Shown here one piece after another: positions 13,527 to 38,291 of a stretch of DNA of 64,000 bases. The notes below the pieces were generated by a model. It saw only the letters and a list, made by a program, of their open reading frames with translations. It was not told the origin of the DNA and made no database searches. A program made the translations under genes and the position numbers. Within the stretch, counting starts at the first letter, position 1, and each line of letters opens with the position of its first letter. Source of the stretch: an uncultured Clostridium sp. (GTDB taxonomy: Bacteria; Bacillota; Clostridia; TANB77; CAG-508); NCBI GenBank assembly GCA_947648215.1, contig CANSMW010000003.1:56256-120255 (forward strand), in the 5' to 3' direction.

Positions 13527-14606
13527 TTATCTACCTTCATCAGCTTTTTCTTTTGCTTTTGATTTCTTTTCTTGTAAAGTAGGCTTTATTTGTTTACGAT
13601 ATTCTTTTAATGGTATTCCATAAATGTATTCAAAGCATTCTGCATCTGTCATTCGATAAGTATGATAACCATCTGCAAGCTTAGTAGTTAGTGCAAAACG
13701 AGGAATTTTACTTAAAGAATTATTCGATAATGTATGTTCGTTTGGTTTGTATCCATATTCTCTTTCCATATTATTAAAACGTTCCATATCATAGGTTCTT
13801 ATTTGGCATTCAAGCCCTAAACCTTGTTCTTCTGAATAAAAAGAACATTGTAAAGAAGCATATCCAGAAGGTTTTGGACGAGCAATATAATCTTTTCTTT
13901 TTTTTGTTTCAAAACCTTGACTTTCATAAAAGCTTTCAATATCTTTTTGAAAATCATTACAATATGGTACTAAATCTTCTTTTGATGATTTTTTGTAAGT
14001 GGTAGCGGTACTTAAAGGCAAATAAATATCTTTCCCATTTCTATTAGCACAAATATATGGAGTATTGTTATCAATCCATACATTACGAGCATTTTCTTGA
14101 ACAGAGATATTAAGTTTCTTACTTTCAAAAGGAATCTGGAAGCAATCGCCATCAATGATACGAAATTCATCTGGACCAGAATCAATATAAATTCCTTCAC
14201 TATCGATACTTATTTTATTAATTGGATAATTAAGGGATAATAAAAAAACTTTAATTGCATAATCATCCATTATTTCAACTGCTTGAAAATCGTCTTTTTG
14301 AAATAAGTCAATAAATTTTCGGATTACTTTTTCATAATGCGAAAAAGGAGACTTAAATCTACCAGCTATACCAAAATCTAAATGGGGATACTTTTCATAT
14401 AAAAAACCATATAAATCTGTTTGTAACTGAATAAAATCATCTAATGAAGATTCGTGTATATTATATTGTAACTGATAATCATTAGGGTCAATAATTAAAT
14501 TGGAAAGTCTCGTTAATGTAGCACACTTTCTTTCAAATTGCTTAAAAATTGGTTCATCATCATTCCATTTCATTAATCTATTTTTTACTTTTTCATCAAT
14601 TAGCAT
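13527..14606 (-). CDS. RelA/SpoT-domain nucleotidyltransferase (alarmone-synthetase-like) with atypical insertions
   Basis: Synthetase motifs GRFKSPFSHYEKVIRK, DDYAIKV, DYIARPKPSGYASLQ and ECQIRTYDMERFNNMEREYGYK align to RelQ/RelP, but a ~85-aa insertion separates the second and third motifs and there are N/C extensions; start set at second ATG with agaggtg RBS. Confidence 0.55.
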   Translation of the reverse strand: MLIDEKVKNRLMKWNDDEPIFKQFERKCATLTRLSNLIIDPNDYQLQYNIHESSLDDFIQLQTDLYGFLYEKYPHLDFGIAGRFKSPFSHYEKVIRKFIDLFQKDDFQAVEIMDDYAIKVFLLSLNYPINKISIDSEGIYIDSGPDEFRIIDGDCFQIPFESKKLNISVQENARNVWIDNNTPYICANRNGKDIYLPLSTATTYKKSSKEDLVPYCNDFQKDIESFYESQGFETKKRKDYIARPKPSGYASLQCSFYSEEQGLGLECQIRTYDMERFNNMEREYGYKPNEHTLSNNSLSKIPRFALTTKLADGYHTYRMTDAECFEYIYGIPLKEYRKQIKPTLQEKKSKAKEKADEGR

Positions 14607-14697
14607 AATATCACCTCTTTTACTCATACCTCCATTATATCATATATCCACATAAAAAGCTAGCAATGCAGGATTCTGCATTGCTAGCGTAAGTTTA

Positions 14698-15387: not shown

Positions 15388-15505
15388 AAAAGCGGTTTTC
15401 CTGTATCCAGTTAAAAACAGTTATATAAAGTGGTTTTCCTGTATCCAATCAAAAACAGTCATATAAAGCGGTTTTCCTGTATCCGGTTAAAAACAGTTGT
15501 AAAAC
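15388..15505 (+). ncRNA. ToxI-like antitoxin RNA: 3 tandem 38-39-nt direct repeats
   Basis: aaagcggttttcctgtatccagttaaaaacagttatat x3 (periods 38, 39); sigma-A-like promoter ttgaaa-17-tatgat at ~15337-15365; followed by terminator and toxN-like ORF. Confidence 0.6.
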
Positions 15506-15563: not shown

Positions 15564-16079
15564 ATGAAACAAACTTTAAAATGGTACATTGTAGACAAAG
15601 AATATGTAAAATATTTAAGAAAGGCAGATAATCGAGTTCAATATAGTGAATATAATGATAAATTAAAACCATATATTGGTATTATTATTACAATTCATGA
15701 TTTCGACTATTATGTTCCAATCTCTTCTGTGGGAAATAAAATAAAGAAACTTGAAAAGTATTCAAAAATGAAAGATGATATTGATATTATTAAAATTTAC
15801 GATAATAATAAAAAGCTATTATCTGTTTTAAATTTAAACAATATGATACCAGTAAGACCAGAGAATGCAAGAATATTAAAATATAGTGAAATTGATAATT
15901 ATAGACAATTTTATAATTTGACAGATAAAAGGAAGTATATTTATTTTCTACAAATTGAATTAGCAATTTTAAGAAAAAACGCTAATATTATTTCATATAA
16001 AGCAACTAAGTTATACGATGAAAAAATAAAAACAAATTCTCAAAAATTTCCAAAAGAACATGTGATTTTAAATTATTAG
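15564..16079 (+). CDS. ToxN/AbiQ-family type III toxin (endoribonuclease)
   Basis: 171 aa; KWYIVDKEYVKYLRKAD...YYVPISS...NMIPV pattern shared with ToxN/AbiQ; paralogous to 34257-34778; RBS aaaggagg. Confidence 0.65.
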   Translation: MKQTLKWYIVDKEYVKYLRKADNRVQYSEYNDKLKPYIGIIITIHDFDYYVPISSVGNKIKKLEKYSKMKDDIDIIKIYDNNKKLLSVLNLNNMIPVRPENARILKYSEIDNYRQFYNLTDKRKYIYFLQIELAILRKNANIISYKATKLYDEKIKTNSQKFPKEHVILNY

Positions 16080-31133: not shown

Positions 31134-32867
31134 TTACTTTTTATCTGTAATGTTATTATCTGCCTCTTCAGTAGCAGACCCCTTAAGATTACCAAGACCT
31201 TTAAGCGTTGCATCAGAAAGACCAGCAATTTCATCAGTCAACGGTTTCTTATTAAGTGCCTTATTCTCTGCATTAAGAACTTTCATGATGGTAGGGATAC
31301 TCATAAGAGTATCAATAAAGCCATTTCCTGTTCCATTGTTAGCGATGCCGGGAAGGTTACCACCACCGATGTTGACAAACTCAGCATTCTGACCAATATT
31401 AGCCATAATCTCAGCAGTTGCGGTTGCAACTTTAATCTCAGCTTCAGTTGTGATCTTGAGCTTTTCAATTTCGAAGTTAACCTTCTCATAGGCAGCCCGA
31501 GCTTCAGCAAGGGCTCTTTCACCTTCTGCTTCTGCAAGCTTCTGTGCTTTGATACTTTCCGCTTCTGCAAGACCTTTAGCCTTAATACCTTCTGCCTCTG
31601 CTATAAGCTGTGCTTTCTTACCTGCAGCTTCTGCTTCTTGCTGTGCCTTAACAACATCAGCTGTAGCTGTACCTTCTGCACGTACCTTTGTTGCTTCAGC
31701 TTCAGCTTTATGCTTAACCGCATCAGCATCTTTCTGAGCAACAGTTACACGAGCTTCCGCTTCAGTTTTCTGAACATCAGCAGCACCCTGGGCTTCCTTA
31801 CGCTTAGCATCAGCAAGGCGTTCAGTAACAGCAATTTCGTTTTCAGCTTCAATTGATTTAACATTTGCAGTTGCTTCAGCATTGATACGCTGAGTTTCTT
31901 TTTGAGACTCTGCTTCAGTAATCATAACTTCGCGTTTTTTCTGAGCAGCAAGGTTGGCCTGTTCCTGTTTCGTGATTTCAATTGCGCCCCTATTCTCTTC
32001 GACTTCACGCGCACGTATAATAGCCTGAAGTTCCATAGCAACATCCGCGTTAGCCTGAGCAGTATCAGTCTCGACCTTGTTTGCAGCGATCATAAGATCT
32101 GTTTCCTTACGTTTTTCATTTATAGCCTGTTCAGCAACCATTCGAGCAATATCTGCCTCCTGAGATGCTACTGCCTCTGCTTTTTCTGCCGCAAGAGATT
32201 CTTCTGCCTGCTTTTCACGAGTAATACGATCAGTTTCAGCCTCCTTAATGTCTGCAGCCTTCTGCTTCTCTGCTTTATCAAGATAAGCAATGTTATCGAA
32301 ATAACCATTGTTGTCAGTGATGTCCTGAATATTAAGAGAAACGAGTTCAAGCCCCATCTTCTCCAATTCATCATCAACAGATTCCTGAATAAGCTTCTTG
32401 AAAGCTTCTTTGTCTGCCAATACCTGTTCAGGTGTCATAGATGCAACTACGTCACGAACAGCACCCATAAGAGTAAGCTTAACATCTTCAATGATACCCT
32501 GCTTACCACGTTCCTTGAAGGAGATAATTGCAGTTTCAAGCTTTGCTTCATCATGCCTGTCAGGACGAATCTGAGCAGTCCAGTCAACAAGCACAGGAAC
32601 TGCAGTTTTGGTCATAATTTCATCTTTGTCAGCCCTAACGGTCAATATGCAAAGGTCGAAAAAATCTGCTTTGCGGATAATCGGAATGACGAAAGCTCCT
32701 CCAGATATGATAATATGGGGCTTCTTACCACCGGTGATGATGAGAGCTTTATCAACATCTGCAATGCGATACATTGCTTTTGCAAGAAGAACAATTATTG
32801 CAATAGCAATAACAATAACAATGACAACTACTACAATAGGGATAATGCTGGATAAAATATCATTCAT
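31134..32867 (-). CDS. flotillin-like SPFH/Band 7 domain protein (FloT-like) with long A/E/K-rich coiled coil
   Basis: N-terminal TM helix, SPFH domain (ALIITGG...VDWTAQIRPD), ~300-aa EA-repeat coiled coil; visibly GC-richer codons (gca/gcc/gag) than neighbours; RBS ggagg 8 nt before ATG 32867. Confidence 0.8.
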   Translation of the reverse strand: MNDILSSIIPIVVVVIVIVIAIAIIVLLAKAMYRIADVDKALIITGGKKPHIIISGGAFVIPIIRKADFFDLCILTVRADKDEIMTKTAVPVLVDWTAQIRPDRHDEAKLETAIISFKERGKQGIIEDVKLTLMGAVRDVVASMTPEQVLADKEAFKKLIQESVDDELEKMGLELVSLNIQDITDNNGYFDNIAYLDKAEKQKAADIKEAETDRITREKQAEESLAAEKAEAVASQEADIARMVAEQAINEKRKETDLMIAANKVETDTAQANADVAMELQAIIRAREVEENRGAIEITKQEQANLAAQKKREVMITEAESQKETQRINAEATANVKSIEAENEIAVTERLADAKRKEAQGAADVQKTEAEARVTVAQKDADAVKHKAEAEATKVRAEGTATADVVKAQQEAEAAGKKAQLIAEAEGIKAKGLAEAESIKAQKLAEAEGERALAEARAAYEKVNFEIEKLKITTEAEIKVATATAEIMANIGQNAEFVNIGGGNLPGIANNGTGNGFIDTLMSIPTIMKVLNAENKALNKKPLTDEIAGLSDATLKGLGNLKGSATEEADNNITDKK

Positions 32868-32989
32868 GAACTTTTCCTCCATATGTCACATTGATATTGT
32901 TTACAGTTACCACTACATTACTTTTGTTTTGCAAAACAAAACTCTTATACAAAGTATACCATAAATTGAAAATTATGTAAAGCGGTTTG

Positions 32990-33790
32990 CCTATTTTTTT
33001 CAATAAATAGATATAGGATCAAAAATATAACCATGTAATATGGTCCTATCTTCGTAAATCTTGCTATTACTTTATATTAGCTACTCTCAAGCTTATTTTT
33101 TAACAGCAAACTATATTCATTATTAATAAAAACTCCTTAAAATCGATTCTGGAGCTTCATTTATTTTTAGTTATACCTGGTTTTATTATTATCATATATT
33201 TATATTATTACTTATATAATTTTTCATAAGTATTTTTAATAATTTTTTCTAAATTTCGCAAAATCCTTATATTTCAATAATTACACCATTTTTATAGACA
33301 ACAAACTATATGCCTAATTTTTAAAAACGGCTTAAAATCGATTCTCGTGCTTCGTTTTTTTGCACTTTTTTAGCTATTTTAATAGAGAACTACTTATAAT
33401 CAGCAATTTATAGCAGTTTAGTAAATTTCTATTATATATAATACTATATTTAAAATATTCGTATAAAGTCAAATTTTATTGATTAGATATAAAAATGTCT
33501 TAAAAACAATTTTAGAGCTTTATAAATATAAAATATTTTACTAATATATTATTACAAGATCTAATAGTAAATTTTAAAATATTAATACAAATTATCAATT
33601 TCATATATAAAAACAAAATATAACAAGTGTTCGTTTTTTGAAAAATTTATATTATAAATTGACTTTGCACAAAATGAAATAATTATATTTTATATTTATG
33701 CTATTTTTTTATTGTAAGATATTTTAGATTTATTAAAATAGTATTGTCTATTCCCCTTATTCCCTACTGTATTTACTTTTTAATATAAAT
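32990..33790. repeat. AT-rich non-coding block B (paralogue of block A)
   Basis: same motif order as block A: cttaaaatcgattct-N-gcttc at 33133, 33328, 33496; ctttgcacaaaat at 33662. Confidence 0.6.
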
Positions 33791-33999: not shown

Positions 34000-34004
34000 T
34001 TCAA

Positions 34005-34053
34005 TGCTGAAAATACTAAAAATTATCCTCCTATATCATAAAAGGATAATTTT
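34005..34053. terminator. perfect 17-bp stem hairpin shared by convergent small transcripts
   Basis: aatactaaaaattatcc-tcctatatcataaaa-ggataatttttagtatt. Confidence 0.6.
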
Positions 34054-34136
34054 TAGTATTGCTTTAAAATATGTTTCTTGTTTTTTCCATCTTTAACTGC
34101 AATAACTGTGAACAAAATTATAGTAGGTAAATTCAT
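34053..34136 (-). CDS. 27-aa hydrophobic peptide (MNLPTIILFTVIAVKDGKNKKHILKQY), type I toxin-like / small membrane peptide
   Basis: strong RBS taggaggagtcgag-ATG; TM-like N-half plus K-rich tail as in Fst/Ldr-type peptides; 3' end overlaps hairpin. Confidence 0.35.
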   Translation of the reverse strand: MNLPTIILFTVIAVKDGKNKKHILKQY

Positions 34137-34256
34137 CTCGACTCCTCCTAACTTTTAACAAACAATGTTTAAGTTACATAAAAAAATACAATAAGCTCTC
34201 TAGCCTAAATTTAGCACATTATATCATACTTTATGTTAAATGTAAATGAAAATTTC

Positions 34257-34778
34257 TTATTTCCCCTTATTCCATTCCTTTAATTTTTCTTCTAATAATT
34301 TAAAATTAACTGTATTTTTTATATAGCCTATGTCCATATTCTTAATTTTCTGATTATAAACTGTTTTTGCATATTTTATAATCCTATTACTATTGTTATT
34401 GATATATCTTAACTCTCCAAGTATTACTTCCTTATATTTTAAATCAGTTTCATTTGATACCATATATGGTTCTAGTTCTGTTATAGGAACAGGTATCATA
34501 TTACTTATTCTTAAAGTCCCATATAAACGATTACCTTCATAAATTCTTATTATCGTTTTAGTATCTTTTCTAATAATCTTTTTATTAATATCAATATAAT
34601 CTGAATTTTTAGGCGAAGACATTGGAATATAATAATTGAATTCGTTTACAGTTAAAACAACGCCTAAATATTTTCTTTCATGAGTCCTTATTTCTTCTTT
34701 ATTGTCATAAATTTTATCATCAAATTGTCTTAAATAGTTTATGTATTTATCACTTACACTATATAAATTTAACTTCAT
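34257..34778 (-). CDS. ToxN-family type III toxin
   Basis: 173 aa; SDKYINYLRQFDDKI...KYLGVVLTVNEFNYYIPMSSPK...NMIPV...NFKLLEEK closely follows ToxN/AbiQ; RBS aaaggagagg. Confidence 0.75.
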   Translation of the reverse strand: MKLNLYSVSDKYINYLRQFDDKIYDNKEEIRTHERKYLGVVLTVNEFNYYIPMSSPKNSDYIDINKKIIRKDTKTIIRIYEGNRLYGTLRISNMIPVPITELEPYMVSNETDLKYKEVILGELRYINNNSNRIIKYAKTVYNQKIKNMDIGYIKNTVNFKLLEEKLKEWNKGK

Positions 34779-34794
34779 TTGCCTCTCCTTTTAC

Positions 34795-34833
34795 AAAAAT
34801 AAGAGAAGGCTATCACTTAAGATACCTTCTCTT
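34795..34833 (-). terminator. terminator between ToxI repeats and toxN
   Basis: perfect 9-bp stem aagagaagg-15nt-ccttctctt followed on minus strand by attttt. Confidence 0.6.
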
Positions 34834-34840
34834 GATTTTA

Positions 34841-34975
34841 ACTTTCTCATTTTAAAGGCTGTGAAACACCCGATTTATAACTTCCTCAATTAAAGGTTGT
34901 GAAACACCCGATTTATAACTTTCTCATTTTTAAATGGTAGTGAAACACCACGATTTTCTTATATTTATTATACTA
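34841..34975 (-). ncRNA. ToxI-like antitoxin RNA: ~3.5 tandem 38-41-nt repeats
   Basis: (plus-strand view) ggctgtgaaacacccgatttataacttcctcaattaaa / ggttgtgaaacacccgatttataactttctcatttttaaat / ggtagtgaaacaccacgatttt; minus-strand promoter ttgaca-18-tataat at ~34985-35020. Confidence 0.6.
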
Positions 34976-35243
34976 TTTTCTTGTTGTAGCTGTCAAGTAA
35001 TATGAATACAATAAATATATTATATTCTATGCATTTTTTATCAAAATATTATAATCAATTTTAACTTTGCACAAAATTGATTTAAGTCAAATAAATTTCA
35101 CGCTTTTTATAGTTTATATATAACCTTGAAGTTATCTTTTAGATTATTTCGATATCTTTGTCCCCTCTTCTCAATATGCATAAAAAGGAAAAAAGCTACC
35201 TCAATATGAGATGAGTTAACTTTTTTCCTTTTCTTAATAAATA

Positions 35244-35948
35244 TTAAAACTCTTTCTTCTCATAAATTCCATAAGCTATCTTATAGGAACTATGATAAAC
35301 CAGTATGATTAATGCAACTAATACAAAAGGAATAAATGGTTTTAAGCTATTTATATCAATCGACCATCTTTCTAACCAATAGAGAATTCCTCCTGTTAAA
35401 AGTGCTAGCATAACCAATAATACTACCATAATAATAAAAATTTGCATTCTGGCTTTTTCGACTCCGAATTTATAGATGCAAGGTATCTGTATGGCTTCTA
35501 CAATGCTAAGTCCTAGTATTCCACCTAAAGATATAAATAGGATTTTGGATAGGTTTATGAAAATTTCTCCTTTTGTAAAAAGTGCCGAAAGAATAATGGT
35601 TATTGGTATTCCAATGAGTGCTCCTATTATTGTGCAACCAACTGCCAAATAGTATTTTGATAAAACGATTTCTTTTAGGCTAATTGGTAGGCTTCTAATG
35701 TATCGGTCTGTTTTGGAGGTTTCATCATAATTGAAACTAGCAATACTAAACATACCAAAACCAAGTGTAACCATAACAGGAAGAAGACTTAGCAAATCAT
35801 TTCCTCCACCACTAAGTAATTGAATTATGGTTGTTATACTAAAGATTAGAATAAAGCTAATGAGTGTTCTTTTATAGGTTTTTAGTTGTAATAAGTCTTT
35901 CATGATAAGCCCTTGCATTTTTGGATTTTTGGTTAGAATTATTTTCAT
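35244..35948 (-). CDS. ABC-2 type transporter permease
   Basis: 234 aa, 6 TM; directly downstream of ABC ATPase. Confidence 0.55.
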   Translation of the reverse strand: MKIILTKNPKMQGLIMKDLLQLKTYKRTLISFILIFSITTIIQLLSGGGNDLLSLLPVMVTLGFGMFSIASFNYDETSKTDRYIRSLPISLKEIVLSKYYLAVGCTIIGALIGIPITIILSALFTKGEIFINLSKILFISLGGILGLSIVEAIQIPCIYKFGVEKARMQIFIIMVVLLVMLALLTGGILYWLERWSIDINSLKPFIPFVLVALIILVYHSSYKIAYGIYEKKEF

Positions 35949-37191: not shown

Positions 37192-37315
37192 ATTTTCTCC
37201 TTTCTTCGACTGTTCATATACAGTATATACACACAGAATAAAAAAGTCAATAGTTTTTTTAAACATTGTACAAAATTTTTAACTTTTGTTGTATAATTGG
37301 TGTGGAGGTTTTGTT

Positions 37316-38291
37316 ATGATAAGTCGTGAAAATAATCCTGATTATTTAAATTCGTTTTTAGATTATTCGGTAACTATATTGAATAAGTCACCAAATAGTA
37401 TTAAGGAATACAATTATGACCTAGCTACTTTTTTAAAGTTTATTAAAATACATTTTGGTTTAACCAAAGAAAATGATTTTTCGAAAATTGTGATTTCGGA
37501 TTTGCCAATTGAGGTAGTTCAGAAAATTACGTTGGATGATATACATGCTTTTATTTCATATTTGGCAACAGAACTTCGTAGTAAGTCTGCAACAAGAGCT
37601 AGGAAGGTTTCTAGTATTCGTATCTTTTTTAAGTATTTATCGGCAAAAGCAAAGTTAATTGAGGTAAACCCTGCTCAAAATTTAGAAACACCGAAATTAG
37701 ATAAACGTACTCCAAAGTATTTGACCTTAGAAGATAGTAAAAGGTTATTAGATGTTGCAAGCAATGAAGATAATCGTAATACCGAAAGAGATTATGCCAT
37801 TACTACTTTGTTTTTAAATTGTGGTATGCGTTTATCGGAACTTGTGAATATTAATATAAAAGACATTCAGTTTGATGAATGTAAAATGACGGTAATTGGA
37901 AAAGGTAATAAGGAACGTACCATTTATTTAAATAAAGCATGTATGAAAGCCATTGCTCATTATTTAGAAGTTCGCCCCAAAGAAGGAATTAATTACAAAT
38001 CGAAGGATGCTTTATTTTTAAGTGAAAGACGTGAACGTATTAGTAATCGAACGGTACAATATATTGTAAAAAGAGAATTACAACAAGCTGGATTAGATAC
38101 GAATAAATATTCTGTACATAAACTACGCCACACAGCAGCCACTCTTATGTATCAATACCGGAAATGTGGATATCCGTGCTCTACAAGAATTATTAGGACA
38201 TGCTAGCATTTCTACCACAGAAATTTATACCCATGTTGCCAATGAACAAGTTCGTAATGCTGTAGAAAGCAACCCATTAGCAGATATGTAA
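37316..38291 (+). CDS. xerD: XerD/XerC-like tyrosine recombinase, frame interrupted by 1-nt insertion at 38158
   Basis: core-binding N-domain, catalytic R..HxxR..Y region; after taCCgga the +1 frame gives canonical [26 protein letters not shown]; RBS ggaggtt. Confidence 0.8.

Follow-up and report, generated by a model that had tools for sequence, protein, structure and literature searches.

A probable chromosomal type III toxin–antitoxin cassette of the ToxIN family in an uncultured Clostridium

Within a 64,000-nt stretch of DNA from an uncultured Clostridium sp. (assembly GCA_947648215.1, contig CANSMW010000003.1, positions 56,256 to 120,255), hereafter the window, a compact cassette of about 785 bp occupies the minus strand from 35041 to 34257. 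It comprises, in this order, a promoter, an array of tandem repeats, a hairpin followed by a U-tract, a ribosome-binding site (RBS) and an open reading frame (ORF) encoding a toxin of 173 amino acids (aa). A first-pass annotation of the window had interpreted this minus-strand locus as a ToxIN system, and that interpretation is upheld, with every element it listed present. Four sequence criteria have been published for toxIN loci, namely a promoter, a repeat array downstream of the -10 box, a hairpin terminator, and a start codon with a toxin ORF (PMC8860590; reviewed in PMC5086642), and all four features are found here. Judging from the sequence and from characterised relatives, the locus is very probably a chromosomal type III toxin–antitoxin cassette of the ToxIN family that works by the standard mechanism. 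The sequences analysed here directly provide its anatomy, the family, fold and catalytic residues of the toxin, the signature of selection, an architecture common to 25 loci and comparative support for stem 1 of the antitoxin RNA. As the window harbors another toxIN, we refer to the present cassette as locus 2 and to the other one as locus 1.

The sigma-70-type promoter of locus 2 spans 34967–34996 on the minus strand, on which all features of the cassette lie. Its hexamers TTGACA (34996–34991) and TATAAT (34972–34967) are separated by an 18-nt spacer, as first annotated, and agree with the consensus at 12 of 12 positions, giving the top promoter-like site in the 1.3 kb scanned (34000–35300). 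From this spacing, transcription is predicted to start near A34960. Immediately upstream, a conserved element at 34997–35041 (consensus ...TGCATAAAATATAGTATATTTATT...) constitutes the 5' edge of the inherited module, given that nucleotide homology to 22 loci of other species starts between 35033 and 35057, with a mode at 35041. Furthermore, a 13-nt inverted repeat, whose arms at 34960–34972 (TATATTTATTATA) and 35007–35019 (TACAATAAATATA, both written for the plus strand) are 92% complementary, flanks the -35 box and overlaps the -10 box, with the arm at 35007–35019 lying within the upstream element. Both the inverted repeat and the upstream block are conserved across species. The element and its inverted repeat could represent an UP element, an operator, or a second promoter (TTGCAT-17-TATTAT-like).

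Downstream of the promoter, Tandem Repeats Finder detected the toxI array at 34834–34956, with a period of 38, 3.1 copies, 86% matches and a score of 177; the in-register copies are 41 and 38 nt apart. The first-pass annotation had assigned about 3.5 copies to 34841–34975. The tandem array is real, but it starts at about 34957/34954 and holds 3.1 copies; the former range is too long because its end at 34975 covers the -10 box and the likely transcription start. The array consists of three complete units of 42, 38 and 38 nt plus the first few bases of a fourth, and these lengths fall within the 31–46 nt of the ToxI units aligned in a census of 2012 (PMC3401426). Unit 1 (34913–34954, 42 nt, AUCGUGGUGUUUCACUACCAUUUAAAAAUGAGAAAGUUAUAA) stands out by a longer loop 2 and by having U-A as the closing pair of stem 1 in the RNA fold described below. 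It is followed by unit 2 (34875–34912, 38 nt, AUCGGGUGUUUCACAACCUUUAAUUGAGGAAGUUAUAA) and unit 3 (34837–34874, 38 nt, AUCGGGUGUUUCACAGCCUUUAAAAUGAGAAAGUUAAA). The three units respectively score 53.6, 57.9 and 63 bits with the covariance model described below. Four AAAUC motifs delimit these three repeats, and the fourth motif (34838–34834) provides the last predicted cut site.

Behind the array, an intrinsic-terminator-like hairpin with its U-tract occupies 34793–34833. The pairing of AAGAGAAGG (34833–34825) with CCTTCTCTT (34809–34801), which the first-pass annotation had placed together with a T-run between the repeats and the toxin gene, is a perfect 9-bp stem. An inner UAUC/GAUA stem of 4 bp lengthens the hairpin (34833–34801) to 13 pairs with one bulge, and AUUUUUGU (34800–34793) comes next. 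The folding energy of the hairpin is -18.2 kcal/mol (z = -4.4), a value that none of 200 shuffled sequences equalled. A generic terminator scan left the hairpin uncalled because its outer loop exceeds the 8-nt limit of the scan, and this result is no evidence against the hairpin. As judged from the sequence, the hairpin would terminate transcription and allow some read-through. Between the U-tract and the toxin gene, the Shine–Dalgarno sequence AAGGAGAGG (34782–34790) can be read directly 3 nt before the ATG, in accord with the RBS noted previously. In minimum-energy folds, the 3' arm of the terminator pairs with the Shine–Dalgarno sequence at two of the related loci (L006 and L008); this pairing is absent from the fold of the window.

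The gene toxN (34257–34778) starts with ATG and codes for a 173-aa endoribonuclease toxin of the ToxN/AbiQ family, as assigned by Pfam, PADLOC, the Protein Data Bank (PDB) and the predicted fold. The motifs KYLGVVL, YYIPMSSPK, NMIPV and NFKLLEEK, on which its likeness to ToxN had been proposed, are all present. A lack of ToxN similarity in profile searches had been set beforehand as a result that would overturn the assignment, and the similarity turned out to be strong: the protein matches Pfam PF13958 (ToxN_toxin) with an E-value of 4.9e-39 over profile positions 1–159 of 159 (134.5 bits against a cut-off of 25), and the PADLOC AbiQ model at 3e-43. A phmmer search of PDB sequences yielded AbiQ (4glk, 3.8e-18, residues 3–171), ToxN_Pa (2xd0, 1.5e-17), ToxN_Ec (7d8o, 7.4e-14) and ToxN_Bt (4ato, 3.4e-13), all four of them aligned over nearly the full length. 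An AlphaFold model computed with 26 aligned sequences reached a pLDDT of 78 and a pTM of 0.77, with only the loop 58–72 poorly defined. In a Foldseek search with this model, the top four PDB matches are the same four ToxN/AbiQ structures (TM-score 0.71–0.82, E-values 6e-10 to 6e-9). The next one is CptN (4rmo; E-value 1.4e-3, TM-score 0.56), and MazF-like folds appear in the noise. The CptIN and TenpIN families were thus excluded, given that ToxN_toxin is the only Pfam match and CptN is distant in the fold search.

The catalytic residues of ToxN are Lys33, Thr52, Ser53 and Lys55 (PMC8860590), which align to Arg35, Ser54, Ser55 and Lys57 of the window toxin. Among 26 relatives, Ser54 and Ser55 are invariant, whereas Arg35 and Lys57 are at least 90% conserved. 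These four residues are predicted to form the active site. The replacement of Lys33 by Arg is also found in two E. coli clusters (PMC8860590). In addition, Tyr110 of ToxN is retained in the window toxin.

A search of protein databases revealed 643 homologues of the toxin at E ≤ 1e-5, many of which are 81–100% identical and nearly all of which come from metagenome assemblies. Those named by their sources are called either 'type III toxin-antitoxin system ToxN/AbiQ family toxin' (NCBI) or 'protein AbiQ' (JGI). Taking one genome per species, we collected 25 loci, all of them from uncultured Clostridia, Clostridiaceae or Eubacteriales and all represented by records of metagenome-assembled genomes. 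Loss of the repeats in relatives that keep the ORF, the other outcome named in advance as contradicting the assignment, was not seen: the 24 full-length relatives from other species all retain the promoter, repeats, hairpin and RBS. Their common layout is TTGAC(A/T/G), a 17–18-nt spacer and TATAAT, repeats beginning 15–18 nt past the -10 box, the hairpin with its U-tract, and a GGAG motif 4–6 nt upstream of the ATG. Both promoter hexamers with this spacer are kept in all 25 loci, as are the hairpin and U-tract, where the differences in L007, L013, L019 and L020 preserve the pairing. Three repeat copies are found in 21 loci, including the window, two copies in three loci and a single copy in one, L009. 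Compared with 20 intact orthologues, the toxin shows a ratio of nonsynonymous to synonymous substitutions (dN/dS) of 0.05–0.13, with a median of 0.09. In the non-coding leader the median identity reaches 84%, whereas third codon positions of the toxin are at 66%. The low dN/dS and a leader identity above that of third positions show that constraint acts on the protein and on the RNA region alike.

To compare the repeats, the arrays of all loci were cut at the motif AA^AU(C), which gave 70 units, 52 of them unique, mostly of 37–43 nt. Of the 70 units, 66 directly follow an AA^AU; the motif is missing at the 5' edge of three first units and at the start of unit 2 in L013. One 3'-terminal boundary (L023) reads AC^AU. 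At every locus, N repeat cores are flanked by N+1 AA^AU(C) sites. This arrangement, viewed together with known systems, is consistent with the AA^AU boundaries being the sites of processing by ToxN. Repeat 1 resembles the repeat 1 of a foreign array more than its own array-mates in 18 arrays out of 20. The repeat positions are thus orthologous across species, which is mildly distinctive when set against the near-identical copies of the P. atrosepticum plasmid pECA1039.

ToxI RNA is described as an H-type pseudoknot of two nested stems of 3–4 bp and single-stranded tails (PMC8860590; PMC3401426), with a stem 1 from pair 1:16 to pair 4:13 containing two central G-C pairs, a stem 2 around C11:G23, and conserved G5, A19, A20 and G21. 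We transferred this fold onto an alignment of ToxI_Pa with the Clostridia units, which align with it end to end with a single 3-nt gap. In the transferred pseudoknot, 85.8% of the cells are standard pairs, a share that falls to 34–52% if the pairing partners are shifted against each other. Stem 1 is 96.8% paired and displays 12 double-sided changes at its closing pair, which is G.U in 26 units, U-A in 11 and A-U in 9. G5 and the GG/CC core of stem 1, corresponding to the two central G-C pairs, are invariant; of the A-minor adenines, the first is invariant and the second at least 90% conserved. Stem 2 is 78.5% paired, with exchanges of U-A to C-G at one pair, in a register that was picked after the sequences had been viewed. 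Taken together, the comparison lends support to stem 1 of the putative pseudoknot.

For reference, arrays were taken from annotated records of pECA1039 (36 nt, 5.6 copies), antiQ of pSRQ900 (35 nt, 2.9 copies), a B. cereus plasmid (36 nt, 3.1 copies) and the Fusobacterium phage phiFN37 (39 nt, 1.9 copies). A covariance model built solely from 51 Clostridia units found the toxI units of phiFN37 with E-values of 5.8e-8 and 4e-4, and gave no match on antiQ, on the Bacillus array or on locus 1 of the window (15389–15498). The window repeats are closer to this phage array than to ToxI_Pa. In the register defined by cleavage, ToxI_Pa is identical to the window units at 25–26 of 36 positions (z = 3.8–5.1), a level that none of 2000 shuffles attained, and it shares more positions with them than the antiQ or Bacillus unit does. 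Homology of the RNA to ToxI_Pa is supported by the alignment in this register and the shuffle test and falls short of proof, because the covariance-model match to it is only marginal.

The repeats might alternatively act as DNA or protein, for instance as iterons, operator sites or a repeat-encoded peptide, instead of as an antitoxin RNA. Such arrays can indeed be read as coding, as illustrated by a RefSeq coding sequence laid across the ToxI repeats of pECA1039, and the inverted repeat bracketing the promoter leaves regulation at the DNA level possible. However, stop codons interrupt all three reading frames across the array, the pairs of stem 1 covary, and the units align with ToxI_Pa, which was crystallised as processed RNA with ToxN (2xd0; described in PMC3401426). 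Moreover, its location between the -10 box and the terminator places the array inside a short transcription unit. We therefore regard a role as DNA or protein as scarcely credible, and favor an antitoxin RNA.

Several observations weigh against the assignment of locus 2 as a functional ToxIN system. At the protein level, an NCBIfam search of the toxin gave no family, and Trp57, Phe88 and Gln117, which hold the RNA in ToxN_Pa and ToxN_Ec, are replaced by Ser, Asn and Glu; since these residues are not conserved, the fine specificity or the exact cleavage motif may differ. At the RNA level, the central pair of stem 2, at positions 10 and 25, is an A.A mismatch in 51 of 51 Clostridia units and G-C in ToxI_Pa, the register of stem 2 was selected post hoc, and the shuffle statistics exaggerate independence because the units share descent. 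On pECA1039, the Clostridia covariance model picked up one variant repeat only, at an E-value of about 0.05. Searches of Rfam, at the gathering threshold for the whole window and up to an E-value of 10 for 34700–35100, returned chance hits only and none to RF02519 (ToxI). The latter is a 34-nt Bacillus-type model with a gathering score of 50 bits, which as a control gave 35.5 bits on the B. cereus array, 26.8 on antiQ and no match on the canonical ToxI of pECA1039; the Rfam negative carries no weight since the model misses ToxI_Pa as well. As for the genomic surroundings, the locus is chromosomal and has housekeeping neighbors, with no other recognised defence genes adjacent. Among the relatives, the toxin is frameshifted in L023 and L024 and has 162 aa in L021 compared with 173, while the repeats persist; these changes could be either decay or assembly errors.

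These last changes, together with a frameshifted C-terminus at locus 1 and the truncation in the window of a linked small membrane-protein gene downstream, would also fit a decaying or inactive remnant, whose toxin has lost the ability to cleave RNA and whose repeats are vestigial. Yet the window ORF is intact and full length relative to Pfam and keeps its catalytic positions, dN/dS is low against 20 orthologues, the promoter is perfect, and the leader is more conserved than synonymous sites. A remnant is thus very unlikely, and an active ToxIN cassette remains the preferred explanation.

Accordingly to the standard type III mechanism as outlined in PMC5086642, PMC8860590 and PMC3401426, we propose a putative model for locus 2, in which the cut site, the stoichiometry, the ratio set by the terminator, the trigger and the anti-phage role are modelled on the ToxIN systems of P. 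atrosepticum, E. coli and B. thuringiensis and on AbiQ. A single strong constitutive promoter would produce a short non-coding RNA of three tandem repeats, toxI. Most transcripts would end at the hairpin and U-tract, and a minority would read into toxN. As only this minority reads through, the antitoxin RNA would be in excess. ToxN, a sequence-specific endoribonuclease, would cut the repeat precursor at the AA^AU of each unit boundary. Each 38–42-nt unit would then fold into a small H-type pseudoknot, with its single-stranded tails in the active sites of neighboring ToxN molecules, and toxin and RNA would be locked as a closed inactive complex. Upon a drop in transcription, such as the shut-off of the host by a phage, the labile RNA would decay without being replaced. 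Finally, the freed ToxN would cleave cellular and phage RNAs at A-rich sites, leading to cell arrest and an aborted infection.

Across species, the homology starts about 45 nt before the -35 box and ends at 34257–34270, at the stop codon of toxN, and the cassette is thus the unit of inheritance. As read from these boundaries, the inherited module is sharply delimited and carries no mobility gene, which is mildly distinctive. The flanking genes differ in every other species, whereas the conspecific contigs L001 and L030–L033 share an upstream GntR regulator, an ABC transporter and a Xer-like recombinase. The wider context is housekeeping: acetyl-CoA carboxylase and fab genes lie to one side of the locus, and Band_7, Rho, DivIC and RF-1 are encoded to its other side. 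The local GC content is 23–25%, against about 31% for the whole window. The first-pass annotation had described the locus as embedded in an AT-rich accessory insertion; the low GC content and a context that changes between species bear out part of this description, whereas accessory status within the species is not shown, the demonstrated strain-variable element nearby being the adjacent Band_7 gene. An empty site was sought among contigs with an identical upstream ABC-2 permease, and none without the cassette was found. Five of the nine permease contigs (L040, L041, L043, L045 and L046) end 390–480 bp past the permease, at the toxI array, which indicates that the toxI repeats break short-read assemblies.

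Given this context, the same module may serve another role than abortive infection, such as addiction or stabilisation of the variable region, or a stress or persistence switch. The cassette sits among genes of fatty-acid synthesis, Rho and RF-1 with no recognisable defence island, and it borders a strain-variable, repeat-rich and AT-rich region with presence or absence of Band_7 and indels on both sides. Locus maintenance and persistence are also named as general roles of toxin–antitoxin systems by Blower et al. 2012 (PMC3401426, among the roles it lists). On the other hand, the functionally tested systems ToxIN_Pa, AbiQ and ToxIN_Ec confer phage resistance (PMC8860590 and the account in PMC3401426), and a Fusobacterium phage carries a relative with a very similar RNA, which fits conflict between phage and host or between phages. 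A search of IMG/VR viral contigs found no close relative of the window toxin, and carriage of this clade by phages is thus unsupported. We consider such another role possible, though clearly the lesser alternative; defence and stabilisation are not mutually exclusive. By analogy with tested relatives, an anti-phage role is plausible for locus 2, although it is not indicated by the context.

A rather speculative idea is that the cassette of about 785 bp is a unit of horizontal transfer that settles in the AT-rich intergenic DNA of gut Clostridia with no mobility gene of its own. Equally speculative, in view of the orthologous array positions and of the distinct closing pair and longer loop of repeat 1, is that its repeats are non-redundant with a specialised unit 1. 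If this is true, unit 1 may have a job of its own, for example nucleating assembly, or setting a decay rate that times the release of the toxin.

The other toxIN of the window, locus 1, lies on the plus strand, with an array at 15389–15498 and an ORF at 15564–16079 that matches Pfam ToxN at 4.2e-36 over profile positions 1–142 of 159. The claim of a second, sequence-distinct toxIN in the 64-kb window is correct, as the two toxins are only 30% identical. The canonical C-terminus of locus 1 (TCDFKLLEEKCMEYNKH*) is in another frame and ends at about 16109, which suggests a 1-nt frameshift in an A-rich stretch at about 16040–16055; the locus could be a pseudogene, contain a sequencing error, or yield a frameshift-dependent product. 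The residue aligned with the catalytic Lys55 is Gly in locus 1. About 1 kb from this locus, at 13527–14627 on the minus strand, a 366-aa protein with a RelA_SpoT nucleotidyltransferase domain (E-value 6e-12, residues 224–297) may be a small alarmone synthetase or a toxSAS-like toxin.

The coexistence of two loci raises the possibility of cross-wiring, with the RNA of locus 2 neutralising the toxin of locus 1 or the reverse. Both arrays have units of about 38 nt with A-rich boundaries, and unit 1 is identical to a locus 1 unit at 28 of 38 positions. Nevertheless, antitoxins of the family are generally specific for their cognate toxins. The low identity of the toxins and the blank result of the locus 2 covariance model at 15389–15498 also argue against cross-wiring, as does the title of the ToxIN_Bt PDB entry (4ato), which speaks of selective toxin inhibition by a non-coding RNA. 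Cross-wiring is accordingly highly improbable. In other genomes, a divergent second ToxN paralogue (31–36% identical) stands in tandem to the cassette, in L005 (2288–2758), L034–L038 (5234–5728) and L020 (5166–5630), forming two-toxIN mini-clusters.

Beyond the cassette, two paralogous AT-rich and ORF-poor segments of about 650 bp (30318–31002 and 33005–33680) surround the Band_7/flotillin gene (31134–32882, GC content about 40%). Each contains three copies of a 71-nt element (core CTTAAAATCGATTCT...GCTTC) as well as 151-nt and 42-nt repeats, and Rfam gave no match for the elements of these segments. In the conspecific contig L032, window position ~33013 is joined directly to ~30728 and Band_7 is missing, which is what recombination between the two segments would produce. 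The 42-nt repeat has a third copy (...AACTTTGCACAAAAT) at 35036–35077, which abuts the upstream edge of the toxIN module, and at 35120–35181 there is a strain indel of 60 bp versus about 380 bp, the long form of which has a 90-aa ORF on the opposite strand (L031 and L032). The cumulative GC skew peaks at about 29–30 kb, where the dominant coding strand flips (window ~29000–31000), as expected near a replication terminus or origin. A Xer-like tyrosine recombinase is encoded at 37286–38206.

On the other side, after toxN, 34053–34246 of the minus strand contains a strong promoter-like site, TTTACA-17-TATAAT with an upstream TG (11 of 12 positions), an AGGAGG RBS and a 27-aa hydrophobic ORF, behind which a 25-bp perfect hairpin is found (34010–34062). 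In L001 (3642–3830), L002 (from 3639) and L003 (from 3641), the ORF beginning at this start encodes a conserved single-pass membrane protein of 62 aa (MNLPTIILFTV...KMEKTRNIF). The gene goes with toxIN in three species, and its copy in the window is truncated, in line with a difference of 114 bp. A stand-alone type I toxin was considered for the 27-aa ORF and rejected, as the ORF is a truncated copy of the 62-aa membrane protein.

Locus 2 is a genuine but ordinary example of ToxIN, and it leaves the understanding of these systems unchanged. As a kind, this locus is not new, and the same holds for two loci occurring in one window, because the census of 2012, in its listing of toxIN loci, already includes many from Clostridia and Fusobacteria as well as genomes with two to four of them (PMC3401426). 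The collection of 25 loci nevertheless supplies 70 naturally occurring repeats, 52 of them unique, as comparative material on the ToxI pseudoknot, and their alignment would link the Proteobacterial ToxI RNA at the sequence level to a subtype of Clostridia and Fusobacteria. The Rfam model of ToxI is too narrow for the window RNA and even for the founding ToxI; as a result, the toxin receives a name but antitoxin RNAs of this kind are left without annotation. In addition, metagenome contigs tend to break at the array.

Compared with known systems, the best PDB sequence match of the toxin is AbiQ of the Lactococcus lactis plasmid pSRQ900 (4glk, 3.8e-18). AbiQ/antiQ has the same layout and a similar copy number (2.9 copies of 35 nt), with the NMIPV and FKLLE motifs in common. 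Its plasmid-borne antiQ RNA, however, is not detected by the covariance model of the window units, and its shuffle z of 1.8–3.0 is below that of ToxI_Pa. The toxins of E. coli ToxIN (7d8o) and of B. thuringiensis pAW63 (4ato) share the fold (TM-score 0.71–0.82) at 22–24% identity in structural alignment. The four features used to call toxIN in E. coli are all found in the window locus, whereas the Bacillus-type RNA, which is that of Rfam RF02519, is unrelated in sequence to the window units.

ToxIN of P. atrosepticum pECA1039 (2xd0/2xdb/2xdd) shows the same layout of promoter, repeats, hairpin terminator and toxN. Its toxin resembles the window toxin in fold (TM-score 0.77–0.81) at a sequence identity of 27%; Thr52, Ser53 and Lys55 are kept as Ser54, Ser55 and Lys57, Lys33 is Arg, and Trp57, Phe88 and Gln117 are lost. 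The two RNAs have in common the GG/CC core of stem 1, G5, the A-minor adenines and the AA^AU boundary, with the 25–26 identities in 36 positions given above. They differ in that the window array has three position-specific copies of 38–42 nt that are 86% alike, against 5.6 near-identical 36-nt copies in pECA1039, and in that stem 2 of the window units includes the A.A mismatch and up to three extra pairs, with a 3' tail longer by 3 nt. Furthermore, the window locus is chromosomal in uncultured Clostridia, whereas that of pECA1039 resides on a small plasmid. The RefSeq record of pECA1039 lays its 'hypothetical protein' coding sequence across the ToxI repeats at 254–475 of L027. The closest annotated relatives of the toxin are those of the Fusobacterium phage phiFN37 (OR492271; annotated only) and of F. 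vincentii toxIN, at 41–42% identity by tblastn. The phiFN37 locus is borne by a phage whose host belongs to a different phylum and has 1.9 copies, and its 39-nt units (AGGTGTTCCACCACCTTAAAATGAAGCAGTTATAAATTC) share the GUUAUAA^AU boundary with those of the window.

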